A stretch of DNA of 47,411 bases from Patescibacteria group bacterium. GTDB lineage: Bacteria > Patescibacteriota > Microgenomatia > Levybacterales > UBA12049. The notes below the pieces were generated by a model. It saw only the letters and a program-made list of their open reading frames with translations, ran no database searches and was not told the DNA's origin. Location of the stretch: the NCBI GenBank assembly GCA_030917445.1, contig JAUPUR010000016.1:1-47411 (forward strand), in the 5' to 3' direction. This document shows, one piece after another, positions 3,222 to 43,096 of the stretch. Position 1 is the first letter of the stretch. Each line of letters opens with the position of its first letter. Position numbers and translations under genes: made by a program.

Positions 3222-4925
3222 CTACACCTCAATTATTACAGGAAGAACAAGAGGTCTTCGTCTAAATTTTCTAAAAATATGCTTACTTGATACCTCTTCC
3301 AATTGTTTTCTCAAATGCACCCAGTTAGTCACTCTCCCTTTTTTACTTGAAAGTACTGTTTTAATTTCTTTCATCAGTGTACCCTGGAGCATTTCACTTT
3401 CTTTTGGTAAAAAACCTCTTTCAATGATATCTGGTGTACCAGATAACTGACCGTCAGAAGCATTTATCTCAATCATCAAAATAATAATACCGTCTTTTGC
3501 CAGTTTCTCTCTATCTCTGAGAACAAATCCCTCAACTTCCTCACCTGAAACTTGATCAACATAAACATTCTTTGTCTGAATTCTTCTACCAAATGTTATT
3601 CCTTCTTTGCTAAAAATGACTTCTTGTCCATTTTCAAGAAGAAGAACATCTTTTGCTTTATACCCCATTTTCATGGCGAGTTTTTGATATCCCAAAAGAT
3701 GCTTATAATTCCCACTAATAGGTGTAATGTAGCGAGGTTTTATAAGTGACATCATCAAGAGATGGTCTTGTTGTGATCCGTGACCTGATACATGATAGAG
3801 AGTTCCCTGCCCAGAGGTCAAAACTGTTGCTCCTCTTTTGGCGATTGTATCTATCAGCTGATTGACAGGCTCTTCATTTCCAGGAATAGGATCTGCGGAA
3901 AAGATGACAATGTCATCAGGTGTTAATTTAACATCTCGATGCTCTCCTTCTGCAATTCGAGTTAGCGCAGAATTTTCCTGACCTTGACTCCCAGCTGCAA
4001 TCATTACAACTTGTGAATCTGGATAATTTGGTAGATGTTCTAGTTCAATAATTGTTCCATCTTTAACTTCTAAATACCCTGCACGCTTTGCAACATCTGC
4101 AACTTTGATTAGCGACCTTCCAACAAAGCAAACTCTTCTCTTAAAGCGTTCAGAGGCAGCAATTATTTGATTTATACGAGCAACATTTGACGAATATGTT
4201 GTAACAATCAGCTTTCCCTTACAGTGTTGGAGCGCATTCTCAAATGATTGCTGTAATCCATCTTCACTTGGAGTGTGTCCTGGTCTATCCGAACCAAGAG
4301 AATCAGTAAGCATAGCCAACACCCCCTCATTCCCAACTTTAACAATACTTTGAAAATCCATACGTTGTTGATCATGGGGAGTAAGATCTATTTTAAAATC
4401 ACTCCCATGATAAAAAATACCTGCAGGAGTACGAATAACAATATTAGTACTATCTGGAACAGAGTGAGTAATTCGAATTAAATTAATAGTAAAACTACCC
4501 AGTGAAAGAGGTTTGTCATGGAATTCAACAGTTTTCACACTTGGATGCATCTTAAATTCTCTTAATTTTTCATTTGTCAGCGCAGCAGTAAAAGGTGATG
4601 CAAAAACAGGAATCTGGGGAGGTAGTTGTGGGAGGATATATGGAACAGCTCCAATATGATCTTCGTGGCCATGGCTCAAAATCATACCTACAATTTTTTT
4701 CTTTGTTTGAAGCAGATAAGTTATATCAGGAAGCAAGAGATCAACACCTAACATTGAAGCATCTGCAAAACCTATTCCACAATCAACAATGAGTATTTCA
4801 TCTTTGTATTCATAAACATACATGTTTTTTGTGACATCTTCCATTCCACCAAGTGGAATAAGAGAAAGGGAGGGTGTATTGGACACTCTTTGTGGTGGGT
4901 TTTGGTTTGTTTTTTCCATATCCAT
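3222..4925 (-). CDS. rnj: Ribonuclease J (metallo-beta-lactamase / beta-CASP)
   Basis: HGHEDHIGAVPYIL motif and LIPLGGMEDVTKNMYVYEY..ILIVDCGIGF N-terminus, about 560 aa. The ORF-track start at 4937 is TTG. In-frame ATGs are at 4925 and 4919, and 4919 fits a leaderless start. Confidence 0.92.
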   Translation of the reverse strand: MDMEKTNQNPPQRVSNTPSLSLIPLGGMEDVTKNMYVYEYKDEILIVDCGIGFADASMLGVDLLLPDITYLLQTKKKIVGMILSHGHEDHIGAVPYILPQLPPQIPVFASPFTAALTNEKLREFKMHPSVKTVEFHDKPLSLGSFTINLIRITHSVPDSTNIVIRTPAGIFYHGSDFKIDLTPHDQQRMDFQSIVKVGNEGVLAMLTDSLGSDRPGHTPSEDGLQQSFENALQHCKGKLIVTTYSSNVARINQIIAASERFKRRVCFVGRSLIKVADVAKRAGYLEVKDGTIIELEHLPNYPDSQVVMIAAGSQGQENSALTRIAEGEHRDVKLTPDDIVIFSADPIPGNEEPVNQLIDTIAKRGATVLTSGQGTLYHVSGHGSQQDHLLMMSLIKPRYITPISGNYKHLLGYQKLAMKMGYKAKDVLLLENGQEVIFSKEGITFGRRIQTKNVYVDQVSGEEVEGFVLRDREKLAKDGIIILMIEINASDGQLSGTPDIIERGFLPKESEMLQGTLMKEIKTVLSSKKGRVTNWVHLRKQLEEVSSKHIFRKFRRRPLVLPVIIEV

Positions 4926-4954
4926 AGTATAGTTCAAATAGCTTATCGAGACAA
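4926..4954 (-). promoter_or_regulatory. Putative promoter of rnj (TTGTCT-17-TATACT)
   Basis: Minus strand reads TTGTCTcgataagctatttgaacTATACTATGGATATG. The -10 box abuts ATG 4925 and lies 6 nt from ATG 4919. Confidence 0.4.
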
Positions 4955-4963
4955 GCTAAAGTA

Positions 4964-6124
4964 TTACCATTGAGGTAAATATTCTTTCAAATTAGTATCA
5001 TTGACTCTTACAGCTGTAACCTTACCTTCAACAATCTGACGTGCCACTTTTCGGCACATTCCTTGAATTGTTCTTTCAAGTGATCGAATTCCAGAGTCAA
5101 AACCCAAAGGACGAATAACACCTGGCCATACTGTTTCATCAATGACGAGATTTTGATCACTGAGACCTGCTTCTGTTCGAATTTTGTTAAATAAATATTT
5201 CTTAGCAATCACAATTTTTTCTTCGTCTGTATATGATGGCATTTGAATAATCTCCAGACGATCAAGAACAGCAGTAGAGATACTACTAGTATTATTGGCA
5301 GTAGCAATGAATAATACATTTGAAAGGTCAAATGGATAATCAATATAATGATCAGTAAAAGCGAAATTTTGCTCTGGATCTAAAAGCTCTACAAGAACAC
5401 CCATAATATCTGCACGCGCTGACTCCGTTACACGATCTAATTCATCAAGGAGAATAACTGGGTTACTTGACCTTGCATGAAAAAGTTTTTTAGTAACAAA
5501 TCCAGGCTCTGCATCAGGGAACGCTTTTGATTGACCACGGAGTGCTCGTGAGTCTGCCATTCCTCCAAATGGAATTCGCTCAAACTTTTTACCCAATGCT
5601 TCTGCAACTGATGAGGCAAGTGTGGTTTTACCTGTGCCAGCCAGTCCTACCAAACATAGAATTGGTGCTCTTTGGACAATGTCCTGTCTTTGTTGTTTCA
5701 TATTTAAAATAATAGTAGCTAGATAATCTAAGATACGGTTTTTAATGACATCTAAACCATAATGATGGTTGTCCATCACTTCTTTTGCCTTTACAAGATC
5801 AAGAGTATCTTGCGTATGTATTCCCCATGGGAGACCGACAACCCAATTAACATAATTTGCTGTATTTTCATATTCAAGTATATAATTTGCGCTCATAAAT
5901 CCAGAACTTGCTCTTAATAGTGCAAGTCTCGATACTCGTTCAAGAAGGTTTTGTTTCAAGACATCCGGAAGCTGAGCTTTTTCAACTCTTTCACCTAGTT
6001 TTCTAATTTGATCATTGGACTCACCTTTGCCTGTGGTTGTTGTAAAAGAAGATGTCGATGTATTCTGTTGTTGTGGAGTTGATCCATCAGCAACAGGAAA
6101 TGTAGGTAGGGCAGAATCTATCAT
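4964..6124 (-). CDS. Lon-family AAA+ ATPase module lacking both the Lon N-domain and the protease domain
   Basis: Colinear with Lon from GLPWG..HHYGLDVIKNRILDYLA through Walker A GLAGTGKT, Walker B VILLDELD and LLDPEQNFAFTDHY to SLERTIQGMCRKVARQ. It stops at ..LKEYLPQW, where Lon normally continues into the Ser-Lys protease domain. Confidence 0.8.
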   Translation of the reverse strand: MIDSALPTFPVADGSTPQQQNTSTSSFTTTTGKGESNDQIRKLGERVEKAQLPDVLKQNLLERVSRLALLRASSGFMSANYILEYENTANYVNWVVGLPWGIHTQDTLDLVKAKEVMDNHHYGLDVIKNRILDYLATIILNMKQQRQDIVQRAPILCLVGLAGTGKTTLASSVAEALGKKFERIPFGGMADSRALRGQSKAFPDAEPGFVTKKLFHARSSNPVILLDELDRVTESARADIMGVLVELLDPEQNFAFTDHYIDYPFDLSNVLFIATANNTSSISTAVLDRLEIIQMPSYTDEEKIVIAKKYLFNKIRTEAGLSDQNLVIDETVWPGVIRPLGFDSGIRSLERTIQGMCRKVARQIVEGKVTAVRVNDTNLKEYLPQW

Positions 6125-37065: not shown

Positions 37066-39324
37066 TTAAGCTTTCACAATACCAAAAACCTCAATCTCTC
37101 CACCACAGTACTTTATTATCCTGTCACATGCATCTTTAAGTGTCTTTTCTATTTGATCTGGAGAGATATCATATATTCCATCTACATTTACATAAAGATT
37201 TTTTGTCTCAAGTGTGACTGCAGTTCTTTTACTATCTCGGAAATTGAAATCGATATTATATCCACCAACTTTATCAAAATAAGCGATCTCTGTTGATTTA
37301 TACGAAGTCTCTTCCGAATCACCTAAAAGCTCTATTTTCTCTCCCTCTTGTGCAAATCTTAAAACTGTAGGGAAAAGTATAGAGTCAAAATCAAACGCTC
37401 CTATGGAAATTTTACTTTCAAGTACCACCATATTATATGCATCAACACAGGTATTAACGGTGTAGAGACCTTTTCCTGTCGCCAACCGTCTCAGAAGAGC
37501 TTCAGGGGACGGTCTTCGAGAATGATAATCAATTCCCATTTCTTTATAAAGTTTTCTATATTGCAATACCTCAGGAATTGTATTTATATCTTCAGTTGTA
37601 AGTGAAGAAAATGAACTCACTATTCTTTCTTTTTCTTCTTCTAAGTTTTTATCTATCTTTTCAATTGTGACACCTTTAATAACTGCAATACCTACTGATA
37701 TACTTGGAAATTTCTCAGAAACTTTCTGATCTATATGAAAATATCCTGTGTTTTTTAAAAGTGTTATCGGTGCATCGTTATTTTGCTTTAAAGATATATT
37801 CGAAACATCCTCAAATCGGGAACGAACAAAATCTTTATCAAGTGATAAGATAAGCCAACCTGCTTTTGGCCCATGTGATTTCCCAAGCAACGCCTGATAT
37901 AAAGCACCAAATGCATCTTTAGATGGAACATTTAATTCCTTTGACTTTTCATAAATTGCTTTTTGAAATGATTCAGGATCCCATTCTTCTAGCATCATGT
38001 CACTAACTTCTTTAAGAAATTTCTTTTGTAAATCATTCAAATCTTTCGCAGAAAGGGGGATCTCTTTTTGCACGGTAAATTTCTCATTTTCAGAAGCAAA
38101 TCTATCAACCCAAATACGCGCATATTTTGCCCATTCTTCGAGACCTTCTTTCTCAATATATGACTTCATATTAGGCATCTGGACAAACTGTGCTAGTGCT
38201 GAAAAACGGATTTGGGGAGGAAGTGTAATACTTTCATTCACCTGAGAAAGCTCAAAGATTCTTGCCATTTCCTCATCTGAATTTGACTCGTAAGCCAAAG
38301 CATATCTTTGGTATTCGTCAAAAAGTTTTGGGATCACATCTGGTTCATATGGATCAAAATTAGTTTGTTTTCTAATATCCATTTTAACAATTAAAAATCT
38401 GACAAGTTCTGGCGGAAGGATTTCTACCATATCAGCAGCAGCAAAACCACGACCTTTTGAAGATGACATTTTTTTACCTCCAATCAACATAAACTCATAA
38501 CTAACGGGGTAGGGTACATCATAATGGAATACTCTCTCACAAAAAAGTTTTGCCATATCATGTGATCCACCGGCACTCATATGATCTTTTCCAGCTCCTT
38601 CAACAGTTACACCAATTGCTTGCCACTTAGCTGGCCACTCAACTTTCCATGGAAGCTTTCCTCTCATCTCTAATTCGTCACTAAAGGGTGATACCTTACC
38701 TTCGTATCCACAACCCTTAGTCCACTCTGTTGCATCGACTGGACATCTATAAAAGACTTTTTCACCATCCCAATTAAAAACTCTTGTTGTTGAAACTTTC
38801 TGGCAATTTTCACAGTACACCTGAAAGGGATACCAATCAGATGGAAGATCTTTTTTATACATCTCTTTATAGATCTTTCTTATTTCCTCAGCGTTATCAA
38901 GAACAACTTTTATTCCAGGATTCATTTTCCCTGAGGTATACAGATCTTTAGTCCAAATTATTTCAGGATGGCAACCAATTTTGTTAAATGCTCCTTTAAA
39001 CTCATACGCATAATACTCAGCAAAATCTTTATACCCATCTACTGGAGATGGAATTTTGTATAAAGGCATACCTAAATATTTTTCAAAAATCTCTCGAGGT
39101 AAATAAGAAGGGATATCATCCATCGGATCGTGATTTTCAAAAACGTATGTATATTTTGTATTTACTCCTGCATCTTTAAGTGATTTATAAACGAGGTCAT
39201 GAAAAACAACACCAAGTAACGATCCTACGTGAACTCTTCCTGAGGGTGTTTTCATATCATCTACCCACTCAAGTGGTAAATTTCTTTTCTTTAATTGTTG
39301 TGCTACTTCGTCTGCCCAAAACAT
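37066..39324 (-). CDS. lysK: Class I lysine--tRNA ligase fused to a C-terminal B3/B4 (PheRS-beta editing-domain-like, COG3382-type) domain
   Basis: Class I LysRS: TPSGRVHVGSLLG (HIGH-type), KMSSSKG (KMSKS), ~525 aa. The extra ~225 aa read IPEVLQYRKLYKEMGIDYHSRRPSPEALLRRL..LYTVNTCVDAYNMVVLESKISIGAFDFD..FRDSKRTAVT. The ORF-track start at 39369 is TTG, and the first ATG is at 39324. Confidence 0.88.
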   Translation of the reverse strand: MFWADEVAQQLKKRNLPLEWVDDMKTPSGRVHVGSLLGVVFHDLVYKSLKDAGVNTKYTYVFENHDPMDDIPSYLPREIFEKYLGMPLYKIPSPVDGYKDFAEYYAYEFKGAFNKIGCHPEIIWTKDLYTSGKMNPGIKVVLDNAEEIRKIYKEMYKKDLPSDWYPFQVYCENCQKVSTTRVFNWDGEKVFYRCPVDATEWTKGCGYEGKVSPFSDELEMRGKLPWKVEWPAKWQAIGVTVEGAGKDHMSAGGSHDMAKLFCERVFHYDVPYPVSYEFMLIGGKKMSSSKGRGFAAADMVEILPPELVRFLIVKMDIRKQTNFDPYEPDVIPKLFDEYQRYALAYESNSDEEMARIFELSQVNESITLPPQIRFSALAQFVQMPNMKSYIEKEGLEEWAKYARIWVDRFASENEKFTVQKEIPLSAKDLNDLQKKFLKEVSDMMLEEWDPESFQKAIYEKSKELNVPSKDAFGALYQALLGKSHGPKAGWLILSLDKDFVRSRFEDVSNISLKQNNDAPITLLKNTGYFHIDQKVSEKFPSISVGIAVIKGVTIEKIDKNLEEEKERIVSSFSSLTTEDINTIPEVLQYRKLYKEMGIDYHSRRPSPEALLRRLATGKGLYTVNTCVDAYNMVVLESKISIGAFDFDSILFPTVLRFAQEGEKIELLGDSEETSYKSTEIAYFDKVGGYNIDFNFRDSKRTAVTLETKNLYVNVDGIYDISPDQIEKTLKDACDRIIKYCGGEIEVFGIVKA

Positions 39325-39349
39325 GTGCTTTATTATAAGTGATTGCTCG

Positions 39350-40315
39350 CTATTTCGAAAGTTTTTCAAAACCTTTCAAAAATGATGTTGCCATCTCCCC
39401 TAAATCACTTATATTGTATCCTCCTTCCTGAACAAGTAGAGTCGGTACTTTTAATGTTGAGATGTCTTCAGCCATCGATTGATAATATGGTATTGTTAAT
39501 TGAAATCCCCCAATTGGATCGTGTTCGTATGTGTCAAATCCTAAAGACACAATGAGATAATCGGGTTTAAATATCCGAATATCTGAAAGAGCACGCTGTA
39601 AAAATTTCTGATATTTTTGAGGTGTCGTTCCCAACGGAAGAGGATAATTCATTGTATACCCTTCTCCCTCTCCCCGTCCTTTTTCATCACTAAAACCTGA
39701 ACTATATGGGAATTTTACTTTTGGATCTGCATGAATTGAAACGTACAATACATCTGATCTGTCGTAAAAAAGATTTTGTGTTCCATTTCCGTGATGGAAA
39801 TCGACGTCAAGAATTGCTACTTTTCCATGTTGTGCTAAATAATGCGCTGCAATCGCGGCATTATTAAAGTAACAATAACCCCCCATCATTTTTTGCTCAG
39901 CGTGATGACCAGGAGGTCGACAAAGTGAATAAACAATATTCTCACCACCGATAATGAGTTCTGCTCCTGTTAACGCAACATTGACAGAACTATATGCTGC
40001 ACCATAAGTGCCTGCAGTAATAGGAGAGTATGTATCCATTATAAAATATGAGGGATACAATATCTCGTCATCACGTAATCTTTTTGACCTTGTTCTGACA
40101 AAATCAACATATACTTTTTGATGAAGCGCATGAATATGATCTAATGAAAATCTTCTTGGTGACATAAAAGACGTAAAATTATTATTTTTTAACGTCGTCA
40201 CTATTGACTCAATGCGATCAGCTTTTTCAGCGTACGACTCTTTAACCCCATCATATATCTCATATGGAGGATTATGTTCTTTATGTTTTTTTGTATAAAT
40301 AATTGGTAATTTCAT
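39350..40315 (-). CDS. Histone-deacetylase-family Zn amidohydrolase (protein-lysine or acetylpolyamine deacetylase)
   Basis: CRPPGHHA, DVDFHHGNGTQ, GFDTYEHDP. SD GGAGG lies 7 nt upstream of the ATG. Confidence 0.9.
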   Translation of the reverse strand: MKLPIIYTKKHKEHNPPYEIYDGVKESYAEKADRIESIVTTLKNNNFTSFMSPRRFSLDHIHALHQKVYVDFVRTRSKRLRDDEILYPSYFIMDTYSPITAGTYGAAYSSVNVALTGAELIIGGENIVYSLCRPPGHHAEQKMMGGYCYFNNAAIAAHYLAQHGKVAILDVDFHHGNGTQNLFYDRSDVLYVSIHADPKVKFPYSSGFSDEKGRGEGEGYTMNYPLPLGTTPQKYQKFLQRALSDIRIFKPDYLIVSLGFDTYEHDPIGGFQLTIPYYQSMAEDISTLKVPTLLVQEGGYNISDLGEMATSFLKGFEKLSK

Positions 40316-40359: not shown

Positions 40360-41394
40360 CTAGCTCCTTGTCATTCTTAGCATTGTATCAACTTGCACTG
40401 GGTCATAAAAGCTTTCTATGACATCCCGTGGCATATACATAAATGTGAAGTCACGAAGACTTCCTTCTGGGACATCTTGTCCATCGTTAACAAGAACATT
40501 TTGGACAATAATTTGAGGTGCACGCTCTCTACTTGGGACTATCAATCCTGCTCCTGCACCTGCACGATCTGATCGAGACTGAAAATTGCATTCAGCATAA
40601 ATAAGTGGCAATCCATTCCCTCCATGCCTAAAATCTGAAAGAATTCGACTATTAAGCATAGCGAGAGTCGCTGTCATAAGACCCCTTCCTGCATATTCAT
40701 CTCTTGTTCTCCATTCAGTATTTTCAACAAGATGAAGGTCACCTTCTCTCCCAGGGATTGATAATCTTTCAGCCATTGCTGCACTTACGATAGTACCATT
40801 ATCATGAACAGCACTAAACCAGACATCTCTATCAGTTGGGTCAGTTGTTCTAGATCCATCAAGCCTTCGCCTAAGTGCATCTACCTCATGTCTCTCCCAA
40901 CCAAAAGTCGGTCCCCAAAGACTATGTAATTGATCAACCTGATCCTCTTGAATAGAATCACTAAAATGTAGTCCGGATTCAACGACACTTCTTACCCTTT
41001 CAAGTGGATTACTCCGCATAACATCTGACTCCGTTGCTGATATCATCTGTTCTGTCGACGTTAATTGCTGCCTACTCGCTGAATTTTGTGCAAAATACAC
41101 TAAATATGCATTTTCTTGAGAAAATTCTTGGAGTGGTACAGCAACTTCTAATAAATGCTCAAACTCTGTTCCTGCAACAGCTTCAACAACTTCTTCACTT
41201 ACTACACCACGAAGTACCCCACGAGAAATCTGCGGATGATTTTCCACAATGGAGCTCACTCTCCTCACGTTTCTTCCGACTTCATCGAAACTTGAAGAAA
41301 AACGAGTAGCGTTTCCATAAATTCGATCATATGGTCTTCTTGTAACTCCAGCACTTCCTGTACTAGAAAATATTTGTTCTTTTTCTTGATTCAT
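40360..41394 (-). CDS. Hypothetical 344-aa protein, nearly lysine-free, C-terminal half GNAT-acyltransferase-like
   Basis: Strong SD AAAGGAGGTG with a 6-nt spacer before ATG 41394 (the ORF-track TTG at 41421 is unlikely). GNAT-like strand/helix pattern VHDNGTIVSAAMAERL..LHLVENTEWRTRDEYAGRGLMTATLAML..LIYAECNF..AGAGAGLIV. One Lys against roughly three dozen Arg. Confidence 0.75.
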   Translation of the reverse strand: MNQEKEQIFSSTGSAGVTRRPYDRIYGNATRFSSSFDEVGRNVRRVSSIVENHPQISRGVLRGVVSEEVVEAVAGTEFEHLLEVAVPLQEFSQENAYLVYFAQNSASRQQLTSTEQMISATESDVMRSNPLERVRSVVESGLHFSDSIQEDQVDQLHSLWGPTFGWERHEVDALRRRLDGSRTTDPTDRDVWFSAVHDNGTIVSAAMAERLSIPGREGDLHLVENTEWRTRDEYAGRGLMTATLAMLNSRILSDFRHGGNGLPLIYAECNFQSRSDRAGAGAGLIVPSRERAPQIIVQNVLVNDGQDVPEGSLRDFTFMYMPRDVIESFYDPVQVDTMLRMTRS

Positions 41395-41416
41395 ATTTTT
41401 CACCTCCTTTTTCAAA

Positions 41417-41444
41417 CACAAAAAAACCCCTTCTGAGAGGGGTT
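41417..41444 (-). terminator. Intrinsic-terminator-like hairpin B (AACCCCT-ctcaga-AGGGGTT + TTTTTgtgttt)
   Basis: 7-bp stem with a U-tract on the minus strand. It ends ~7 nt before the SD of the lysine-free ORF. Confidence 0.6.
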
Positions 41445-41455
41445 ACTTTTACACG

Positions 41456-41478
41456 AAAAAAGCCCCTCTTATGAGAGG
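41456..41478 (-). terminator. Weaker terminator-like hairpin A (CCTCT-cata-AGAGG ggc TTTTTT)
   Basis: 5-bp stem followed by a T6 run. Its 3' arm AGAGGGG can alternatively pair with CCCCTCT of hairpin B. Confidence 0.4.
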
Positions 41479-41516
41479 TTTTTCTTGTTTGCTACTAATG
41501 TAACACGTGTTTGCAT
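41469..41516 (-). other. Candidate 15-codon leader mini-ORF MQTRVTLVANKKNLS*
   Basis: The ATG is 9 nt downstream of a consensus -10 box. Two adjacent Lys codons (AAG AAA) lie just 5' of hairpin A. The stop TAA sits in the loop of hairpin A. Confidence 0.25.
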
Positions 41517-41525
41517 AAGAAATTT

Positions 41526-41553
41526 ATTATAGTCGAGAAATATTTTTTGTCAA
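41526..41553 (-). promoter_or_regulatory. Consensus sigma70-type promoter TTGACA-16-TATAAT, -35 overlapping the murB TGA stop
   Basis: Minus strand reads cTTGACAaaaaatatttctcgacTATAATaaatttcttATG. Both hexamers are perfect. Confidence 0.6.
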
Positions 41554-42518
41554 GTTGTCTCTTGAATCATTACTTCAGGAGTAGGATAAAACCCAAATGT
41601 TTGATGAAATGTATCTTTAATATCATTGATAATCTCTATGATATCTTCTGACCTTGCCTGACCTACATTCACGATATAATTTGAATGTTTTGGAGACACT
41701 TGTGCACCTCCGACCTTTTTCCCTGTGAAACCAAGTCTGTGGATAATATATCCCATGGAGATCTTTCCATGCCATTTTTCATCACTTATCTTCTTAACAT
41801 CCGGCCAAATACCTAGTATCGTGTCCACCTCATCCTTTTTAACAATATTCATATATACTGAACCGCAAGATGGATATTCCATTGGATGGTTTTTTTCACG
41901 ATATGCAATATTTTCATGATATGTCTGCCATGCTTTTTCTACTTCTTCTTTTGTTCCAGCTCGTAACTGAAAAGTAACTGATGTTATAAGAAATGAAGGA
42001 TTATCTTTAAAGATACTGTGTCTATAGGAAAAGCTGCACTCCTCATTCTTAAAGGTATATAGACGTTTATCATCTGATACATAATCAATTGATGATACTT
42101 CTAAAACAGTATTTCTTATCTCTGAACCAAATGCCCCAGCATTCCCCCTCACTGCACCTCCTACCGTACTTGGAAGGCCACCAGCCCACTCAAGGCCAAC
42201 CAAACCTTTTCTAAGTGCATACTGTAGAAGAGTGTCCATACTTTCACCTGCAAAAACTTTTATAACATCTTTACCAACAAGTTCACATCCAGAACCATCC
42301 CCATGTAACCATAAAACTAATCCATCAAACTGCTTATCGGAAAGAAGAAGATTTGCTCCCATTCCGAGGACAAGAAGATTCTCTATTTTATTGTCTTTTC
42401 TATACTCAAGTGCATTTCTTATATCTTGTTCAGACGTCACTTCAATAACAGTTTGTGCTTTACCACCAATACGATAATAAGAAAGAGAAGAAAGAGGAAT
42501 GTTATAATGCAGTTTCAT
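41550..42518 (-). CDS. murB: UDP-N-acetylenolpyruvoylglucosamine reductase
   Basis: FAD-binding YYRIGGKA, GMGANLL, GGAQVSPKHSNYIVN. 322 aa. Confidence 0.93.
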   Translation of the reverse strand: MKLHYNIPLSSLSYYRIGGKAQTVIEVTSEQDIRNALEYRKDNKIENLLVLGMGANLLLSDKQFDGLVLWLHGDGSGCELVGKDVIKVFAGESMDTLLQYALRKGLVGLEWAGGLPSTVGGAVRGNAGAFGSEIRNTVLEVSSIDYVSDDKRLYTFKNEECSFSYRHSIFKDNPSFLITSVTFQLRAGTKEEVEKAWQTYHENIAYREKNHPMEYPSCGSVYMNIVKKDEVDTILGIWPDVKKISDEKWHGKISMGYIIHRLGFTGKKVGGAQVSPKHSNYIVNVGQARSEDIIEIINDIKDTFHQTFGFYPTPEVMIQETT

Positions 42519-43010: not shown

Positions 43011-43046
43011 AATAAAGAAAATCTCTCTTTTTTTGCAGAGAGATTT
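43011..43046 (-). terminator. Terminator-like hairpin in the greA 5' leader (AAATCTCTCT-gcaaaaaa-AGAGAGATTT + TCTTTATTT)
   Basis: Perfect 10-bp stem at 43019-43046 plus a U-rich tail. It lies between the predicted greA promoter and the greA ATG, which is 14 nt downstream. Confidence 0.5.
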
Positions 43047-43067
43047 GTTATCCTTAATTCAAAAACG

Positions 43068-43096
43068 AGTATAAAGAAATAAAAAATGTTTGTCAA
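43068..43096 (-). promoter_or_regulatory. Promoter of greA-murB (TTGACA-17-TATACT)
   Basis: Minus strand reads gtaTTGACAaacattttttatttcttTATACTcg. Confidence 0.55.

Follow-up and report, generated by a model that had tools for sequence, protein, structure and literature searches.

A stretch of 47,411 nt of DNA from a Patescibacteria group bacterium (contig JAUPUR010000016.1 of assembly GCA_030917445.1; hereafter the window) contains a gap of 159 nt between murB and an open reading frame (ORF) for a GNAT-like protein of 344 amino acids (aa). A promoter, a very short ORF with two adjacent lysine codons and two hairpins that could interlock all lie inside this gap, which raises the question of whether they form a regulatory leader of the downstream genes or mark the end of the transcription unit upstream. 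We consider it likely, with a probability of roughly 0.8, that the element is a trp-type transcription attenuator, in which a ribosome translating a leader peptide, probably on a leaderless message, would sense charged tRNA-Lys; this reading draws on sequence comparison and folding models. An initial annotation of the locus had already proposed mutually exclusive 1:2, 2:3 and 3:4 pairings with the Lys codons as the sensor, and the recurrence of the element, the conservation of its reading frame and the modeled switch described below support this proposal.

All features listed in the initial annotation are present in the window leader, for which coordinates are given on the minus strand throughout. 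The promoter consists of a -35 hexamer TTGACA (41548..41553), which overlaps the TGA stop codon of murB (41552-41550), a 16-nt spacer and a -10 hexamer TATAAT (41526..41531). It matches the consensus at 12 of 12 positions and is the sole such match in 9.5 kb. The ATG of the mini-ORF (41516-41514) follows the -10 box at a distance of 9 nt and is not preceded by a Shine-Dalgarno (SD) sequence; judged from this arrangement, the mini-ORF is probably leaderless or nearly so. It spans 15 codons (41469..41516), encodes MQTRVTLVANKKNLS and ends with TAA (41471-41469). Codons 11 and 12 are the Lys codons AAG (41486-41484) and AAA (41483-41481), which together occupy 41481..41486. They are included in region 1, AAGAAAAACCTCTCA (41472..41486), the 5' arm of the 1:2 hairpin. 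Region 2, AGAGGGGCTTTTTT (41456..41469), forms the 3' arm of hairpin A and is at the same time the putative 5' strand of an antiterminator, whose 3' strand would be region 3, AAAAGTAACCCCTCT (41436..41450). Region 3 is also the 5' arm of the predicted intrinsic terminator and is followed by its 3' arm, region 4, AGAAGGGGTT, with a T-tract (41420..41434).

Hairpin A (CCTCTC/GAGGGG, 41478-41463) carries the TAA of the mini-ORF in its loop and is followed by CT6. While it had been described as weak, it turns out to be part of a longer 1:2 helix that takes in the Lys codons. Hairpin B (AACCCCT/AGGGGTT, 41444-41425) represents the full terminator stem and runs into a T7 tract. The SD sequence GGAGGTG of the GNAT-like gene (41401..41407) lies 6 nt before the ATG at 41394 and is unpaired across all predicted folds. 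Overall, the leader of 125 nt folds with -39.9 kcal/mol (z = -5.5 versus shuffles), and AGAGGGG in region 2 can form 7 bp, five of them G:C, with CCCCTCT in region 3. However, stems A and B resemble each other, so that the 3' arm of A will almost automatically be complementary to the 5' arm of B. Interlocking hairpins in a single sequence are thus weak evidence, and the question has to be settled by comparing relatives.

Profile-guided scans for the GNAT-like protein yielded 18 genome loci and 34 metagenome loci. About 95 homologs of the protein were found, and where these are named, all of them belong to the candidate phyla radiation (CPR/Patescibacteria; Levy-, Woese-, Blackburn-, Davies- and Saccharibacteria). 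The same leader is located directly upstream of the GNAT-like gene in about 30 loci (27 of them non-redundant) from Microgenomates to Saccharibacteria, and the comparisons below refer to these, with some tests carried out on 27 and some on 30 leaders. The mini-ORF, the adjacent Lys codons and the alternative pairing, whose conservation upstream of orthologous operons the initial annotation had named as a check, thus recur in several CPR phyla. The common layout comprises a TTGAC-type promoter, an ATG a few bases past the -10 box, an ORF of 14-29 codons, a G-rich segment and a terminator of the type CCCCTC/GAGGGG with a T-tract. The terminator is present in all leaders and the TTGAC-type -35 box in most related ones. 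When both strands of 451 kb were scanned with a loose motif, the element came up once per locus and solely before the GNAT-like gene. The gene upstream, in contrast, differs: murB or greA is found in Microgenomates-type loci, tRNA-His in Saccharibacteria and other genes elsewhere. Hence, the hairpins are part of the downstream operon and are not murB terminators. In the closest relative, locus L001, the leader shares 79% nucleotide identity with the window, compared to 75% for the GNAT-like gene and 69% for murB, and the mini-ORF peptide is kept through synonymous and conservative changes.

Some loci show additional features. At L010 (~1090-1285), an extra hairpin with a T-tract is found ~100 nt past the first terminator and before the GNAT-like gene. 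The most divergent loci, L044 (~130-290) and L047 (~4790-5000), have at least 47 nt with a hairpin ahead of the Lys-Lys mini-ORF, which is not leaderless there, and both carry purine-rich GGAGGA sequences past the Lys codons.

Next, we focus on the mini-ORF, as a ribosome-based sensor would depend on its being read in the proper frame. All 30 related leaders contain an ORF of 14-29 codons with an in-frame KK or KxKK motif at codons 8-17. As frame anchor we used the first ATG after the best -10 box, picked without regard to the ORF; in about 24 leaders this ATG lies 2-14 nt past the box. Counted by the frame of the anchor, about 38 AARAAR hexamers fall into frame 0 and only 4 and 3 into the other two frames. 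The distance from the ATG to the Lys codons takes seven different values (7-14 codons) across 24 sequence clusters, and the Lys codons are nevertheless always in frame with no stop codon in between. The chance of this outcome is about 5e-4 when just the seven length classes are counted as independent. The peptides outside the Lys cluster, which is typically x-K-K or K-K-x-K-K, are not conserved. An SD-like motif precedes the mini-ORF in 2 of 27 leaders, as opposed to 20 of 27 for the GNAT-like gene, and its position upstream of the mini-ORFs is filled by the -10 box. By these two features of a sequence-predicted start, namely the ATG 2-14 nt past the predicted -10 box and the rarity of SD-like motifs, the message of the mini-ORF, if it is translated, is probably leaderless or nearly so.

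The codon choice in the leaders also differs from that of the window genes. The regulatory Lys codons are AAG in 73% of cases (56/77), whereas 79% of the Lys codons in the window genes are AAA (811/1023). This bias could stem from a pairing constraint or from the use of a minor isoacceptor.

The geometry of the leader is consistent with stalling at the Lys codons as the decisive event. Region 2 was defined for each sequence as the best partner of the terminator 5' arm. In 27 leaders this GAGGGG segment starts 45-57 nt past the ATG (median 49) and at a median of 12 nt past the first base of the last Lys codon. This spacing puts region 2 just past the leading edge of a ribosome stalled at the last Lys codon. 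Region 1, the best partner of region 2, overlaps the Lys codons in about 23 of 30 leaders. Two placements are seen for the stop codon: in some leaders, including that of the window, it lies in the loop of hairpin A and precedes region 2 by 0-3 nt, and in the others it comes 6-37 nt past the start of region 2. It is always at least 24 nt ahead of region 3.

The terminator itself is well supported by covariation: 92.6% of cells are paired, six pairs are changed on both sides, and none of 500 shuffles is as good. For the 1:2 and 2:3 helices, the energy of each duplex with its own partner was compared with that of duplexes with partners from other leaders (5000 permutations), in place of column-wise covariation. 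The 2:3 duplex amounts to -15.0 kcal/mol with its own partner versus -12.2 +/- 0.46 kcal/mol with others, and the 1:2 duplex to -13.7 versus -10.9 +/- 0.48 kcal/mol; in neither case was any of the 5000 permutations as good. Moreover, leaders with atypical terminators (GGCCC in L015, GCGC in L028, and L016) show matching changes in regions 1 and 2. In the window, the 2:3 antiterminator is made up of 7 bp plus 5 bp and reaches -12.5 kcal/mol.

Whether a ribosome could tip the balance between the two conformers was modeled by equilibrium folding with the ribosome footprint as a mask. The model of the window leader begins at the ATG and stops where the terminator stem ends. In the comparison of conformer energies suggested by the initial annotation, the terminator conformer (A+B) is favored when no ribosome is present (-26.6 versus -24.4 kcal/mol). 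A ribosome with K11 in its A site reverses this preference toward the antiterminator (-14.1 versus -12.5 kcal/mol), and so does one with K12 there (-13.2 versus -10.1 kcal/mol). A ribosome at the stop codon masks region 2 in the model and leaves the terminator as the sole option. When the footprint was slid along the 30 mini-ORFs, the terminator probability reached its minimum at or just before the Lys codons and was back up 2-4 codons further on. The median terminator probability in 27 leaders is 0.02 at the Lys codon and 0.99 at the stop codon, and a full switch is seen in 18-19 of 27 leaders with each of three footprint sizes in this equilibrium model.

From these observations we infer the following course of events. 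The transcript would start a few bases before the ATG at 41516, and a ribosome would load on this 5'-proximal ATG without the help of an SD sequence and trail the polymerase. As long as Lys-tRNA(Lys) is plentiful, the ribosome would clear codons 11-12, run on to the stop codon, which lies in the loop of hairpin A, and mask region 2 (AGAGGGG). Region 3 (CCCCTCT) would then pair with region 4, and the hairpin with its T7 tract would end the transcript at ~41420. Termination would also result when no ribosome is present, as hairpins 1:2 and 3:4 would both form. If Lys-tRNA(Lys) is scarce, the ribosome would stall with AAG or AAA in the A site, covering region 1 and stopping short of region 2. Pairing of regions 2 and 3 would then take the place of the terminator and allow the polymerase to read through into the lysine-depleted GNAT-like gene, the acetylpolyamine-amidohydrolase-like gene and, in the window, the gene of lysyl-tRNA synthetase (LysRS). 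With LysRS in the operon, a feedback loop on tRNA-Lys charging would be closed.

Two further features of the window leader concern the 5' part of the mini-ORF. The palindrome AACACGTGTT, which had been put forward as a site for a binding factor, is indeed present but occurs at chance level: the window contains 53 perfect palindromes of 10 bp in all, and this one is not kept in L001. We thus rejected it as a factor-binding site. CAAACAC near the 5' end of the mini-ORF (41505-41511) can pair with GTGTTTG past the terminator T-tract (41395-41425), and would thereby enclose the entire leader when it is folded at full length; as neither segment has changed in L001, this pairing shows no covariation.

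Several alternatives have to be weighed against a Lys-specific attenuator. The hairpins might be tandem or bidirectional terminators of the greA-murB transcript, as the initial annotation had cautioned, with the promoter match and the mini-ORF being fortuitous. Both hairpins are terminator-like on both strands, and hairpin A has its own T6 tract in the window. Yet the element tracks the downstream operon: it recurs as a whole, including the ATG and the in-frame Lys codons, behind unrelated genes such as tRNA-His, greA and others. Moreover, the promoter is located upstream of the hairpins, which are therefore within the transcribed leader, and region 2 lacks an uninterrupted T-tract in most relatives. 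We regard this explanation as highly improbable. Alternatively, the leader might act independently of translation, as an RNA switch of the riboswitch or T-box type. Its ligand, be it tRNA-Lys, lysine or a protein, would then be bound by the conserved AAGAAG and the G-rich segment, with the ORF present only by coincidence. Genes of aminoacyl-tRNA synthetases (aaRS) are classic T-box targets, and one such gene, that of LysRS, belongs to the operon; pairing of AAG with the anticodon of tRNA-Lys is conceivable, and the RNA is strongly structured, as its z-score indicates. However, T-box, Lysine and other Rfam families are not matched, either in the window at E up to 10 or at the gathering score in nine related loci, and the leader is just ~100 nt long and has neither a Stem I platform nor a T-box bulge. 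Such a switch would also leave unexplained why the frame from ATG to Lys is kept across insertions and deletions and why the stop codon is placed consistently relative to region 2. A switch of this kind is quite unlikely.

The two remaining alternatives retain the reading frame. The mini-ORF might encode an arrest peptide like SpeFL or TnaC, or a functional micro-protein. Its Lys residues would then respond to a small molecule, for instance a polyamine, or would themselves be substrates of the GNAT/deacetylase pair, instead of reporting the charging of tRNA-Lys. This would suit the regulated enzymes, which resemble spermidine acetyltransferases and acetylpolyamine amidohydrolases, and a polyamine gene is indeed governed by the SpeFL leader peptide; furthermore, the Lys residues are the sole conserved residues of the peptides. 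Arrest peptides, however, need a conserved sequence in the exit tunnel, whereas the peptides outside the Lys cluster vary in sequence, length (14-29 aa) and stop position, and what the peptide contains past the Lys cluster is set by region 2 of the RNA. We consider an arrest peptide quite unlikely. The last alternative keeps the attenuator as such and changes only the signal: the stall would report a loss of functional tRNA-Lys by anticodon-nuclease cleavage, a modification defect or LysRS inhibition instead of a shortage of lysine. The ribosome reads just the availability of the Lys-tRNA ternary complex, the preference for AAG in the leaders, as opposed to AAA in the window genes, could point to one isoacceptor, and LysRS is encoded in the operon. 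The AAG preference may, however, be structural, since AAG provides G-C or G-U pairs in helix 1:2. As a refinement of the attenuator model that the present data do not separate from it, this variant appears very unlikely to be the better description.

A number of observations weigh against attenuation by Lys-tRNA, or limit how far it can be taken. Column-wise covariation of the 1:2 and 2:3 helices was not obtained, because the helix registers differ between subgroups, and the GGGG:CCCC core is almost invariant. On MAFFT columns, 74.6% of the cells of the antiterminator core are paired, which is no better than in shuffles. RNAalifold recovered the terminator alone from the MAFFT alignment of 27 leaders and found no consensus structure in 48-nt windows around hairpin A. 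In the equilibrium model, 8-9 of 27 leaders do not show a full switch. These exceptions include leaders with very stable terminators, for which an equilibrium model is uninformative, and L003, L021 and L045, in which region 2 pairs with the 5' end of the ORF. The Lys codons number just 2-4 per leader, their AAG preference may reflect pairing and not decoding, and region 1 is rich in A partly because of a chain of complementarity that leads back to the U-tract of the terminator. As to the regulated genes, LysRS is encoded downstream in just about one third of the loci, and the difference in lysine content between proteins with and without the leader (see below) has a Mann-Whitney p of 0.015 that is not corrected for phylogeny.

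The genes that the leader would control are arranged in the same orientation. The GNAT-like ORF (40360..41394, minus strand) is followed by a gene for an HDAC-family amidohydrolase (39350..40315, minus strand), and the third gene, whose first 20 nt are also the end of the amidohydrolase gene, encodes a class-I LysRS fused to a B3_4 domain (37066..39369, minus strand). The GNAT-like and amidohydrolase genes adjoin in nearly all of the ~50 loci; the three exceptions are L028, L041 and L051, where no match was found past the GNAT-like gene. The AlphaFold model of the GNAT-like protein (pLDDT 92) shows a generic GNAT fold in the C-terminal half, and a Foldseek search with it returned generic GNAT matches only (SpeG, AAC(6'), Naa60 and, weakly, FemX) and no specific function. 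The product of the second gene comes nearest to acetylpolyamine amidohydrolases (PDB 9gkz, E = 1e-82). The B3_4 domain at the C-terminus of LysRS, which is of the class-I, archaeal type, has the fold of the editing/tRNA-binding domain of the PheRS beta-subunit, and a B3_4 match also follows LysRS in L001, L010, L030, L045 and L046. Upstream of the leader, murB (42518-41550) and greA (43004-42537) are encoded on the minus strand as well. Directly upstream of greA, the interval 43019-43096 (minus strand) holds a second strong promoter-like site, TTGACA-17-TATACT (11/12), and behind it a hairpin of 10 bp that is rated as a terminator on either strand.

The first gene of the operon stands out by its composition. 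The initial annotation had described its product as free of lysine; it contains one lysine (K5) among 344 aa, along with 34 arginines. This corresponds to 0.3% lysine, compared to 3.9-10.3% in the 32 other long ORFs of the window. The whole GNAT-like family is lysine-depleted and arginine-enriched and has no conserved Lys, with a median lysine content of 2.8% in loci with the leader, 5.1% in loci without it and 7.2% in neighboring genes. A lysine-poor first cistron that can be translated at low Lys-tRNA, together with LysRS in the window operon, fits a response to lysine limitation. The coherence with LysRS that had been pointed out earlier thus holds for the window and for the third of loci in which the synthetase gene belongs to the operon.

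Loci that lack the leader carry a divergently oriented gene of ~215 aa next to the operon (L006, 5260-5913; L031, 4260-4907; also L017, L026, L027 and L030). Its product has a C-terminal ACT domain that is most like the ACT domain of aspartokinase (a weak match, E about 1e-5), and the intergenic region shared with this gene contains the operator-like repeats TTGTTACAT and TTTTACAT. To judge by this arrangement, the gene may provide an alternative amino-acid-responsive control of the same operon. On the widest and most tentative reading of the leader, discussed last, the lineages in question would seem to have exchanged it for a divergent regulator whose ACT domain is of the aspartokinase type, and one signal would then reach the same operon through two unrelated sensors.

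How does the element compare with known systems? Attenuation by leader peptides is a textbook mechanism that has been described for Trp, His, Leu, Thr/Ile, Phe, Cys and similar amino acids in cultivated phyla, and lysine sensing is known from riboswitches and T-boxes. The closest parallel is the trp attenuator of E. coli (trpL; Rfam Trp_leader, with the related His, Leu, Thr and Phe leaders). Its four-region logic of 1:2, 2:3 and 3:4 pairing is the one proposed for the CPR leader. Further common traits are a short leader ORF whose two neighboring regulatory codons fall within region 1, a stop codon that separates regions 1 and 2 and at which a terminating ribosome would mask region 2, and an intrinsic terminator right before the first structural gene. 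The CPR leader differs from the trp attenuator in its Lys codons, in the mini-ORF without SD sequence beside the -10 box, in its host and in the non-biosynthetic nature of the downstream genes. Moreover, no Rfam leader resembles it in sequence or by covariance model. A search of the window from 41000 to 42000 against Rfam at permissive thresholds gave nothing meaningful, the best matches being a microRNA model and Phe_leader with 21.7 bits (gathering score 55). Neither the lysine riboswitch (RF00168) nor the T-box (RF00230) was found in this interval at E up to 10, and in nine related loci tRNAs alone reached the gathering score. In the pheST attenuator of E. coli, an aaRS operon is controlled through the cognate codons of the pheM leader peptide, with feedback on tRNA charging. 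In the CPR loci, by contrast, LysRS is the third gene and is present in about one third of the loci, whereas the constant cargo is the GNAT-like/amidohydrolase pair.

With the lysine riboswitch (L-box, RF00168) and the Lys T-boxes of lysS/lysK, the CPR leader would share the signal, lysine or tRNA-Lys, and an output by terminator and antiterminator; T-boxes likewise control LysRS genes. These elements act by direct contact of the RNA with its ligand or with tRNA over ~180-250 nt, while the CPR leader comprises ~100 nt with a conserved reading frame. We know of no leader-peptide attenuator in which Lys codons are the ones sensed, and a full-text literature search returned neither an earlier attenuator with a Lys leader peptide nor any such element in CPR bacteria. 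With regard to the predicted leaderless start, the best comparison is with the leaderless polycysteine short ORFs of mycobacteria, which occur at six loci and exert translational control in response to Cys (Canestrari et al., bioRxiv 10.1101/834739). In both systems a leaderless short ORF is, or in our case would be, the first cistron, stalling at codons of one amino acid controls, or in our case would control, the operon, and the sensor recurs at several loci. Unlike in the mycobacterial system (10.1101/834739), the CPR element has an intrinsic terminator, an SD sequence that is never sequestered, Lys codons and one type of operon.

If the attenuation model is correct, lysine joins the amino acids that are sensed by the ribosome, and attenuation extends to the CPR bacteria, which are ultra-small and for the most part uncultivated, with a message that is probably leaderless. 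To our knowledge, almost no gene regulation has been worked out for these organisms. In its widest form, which we put forward only tentatively and hold to be somewhat less probable than its opposite, the leader would be the sensor of a CPR-wide lysine-starvation "ribulon". It would then rank as the first leader-peptide attenuator specific for Lys and, in Patescibacteria, as the first defined cis-regulator that senses an amino acid. Its constant cargo of a lysine-depleted GNAT-fold protein and an acetylpolyamine-amidohydrolase-like enzyme might belong to a pathway not yet described, with which these episymbionts, being auxotrophic for lysine, react to lysine or acetylated amines or salvage them. 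The leader also gives a handle on a strictly paired and strikingly lysine-depleted enzyme system, which would be expected to be switched on when Lys-tRNA is short, and thus bears on how amino-acid-auxotrophic symbionts handle the supply from their hosts.

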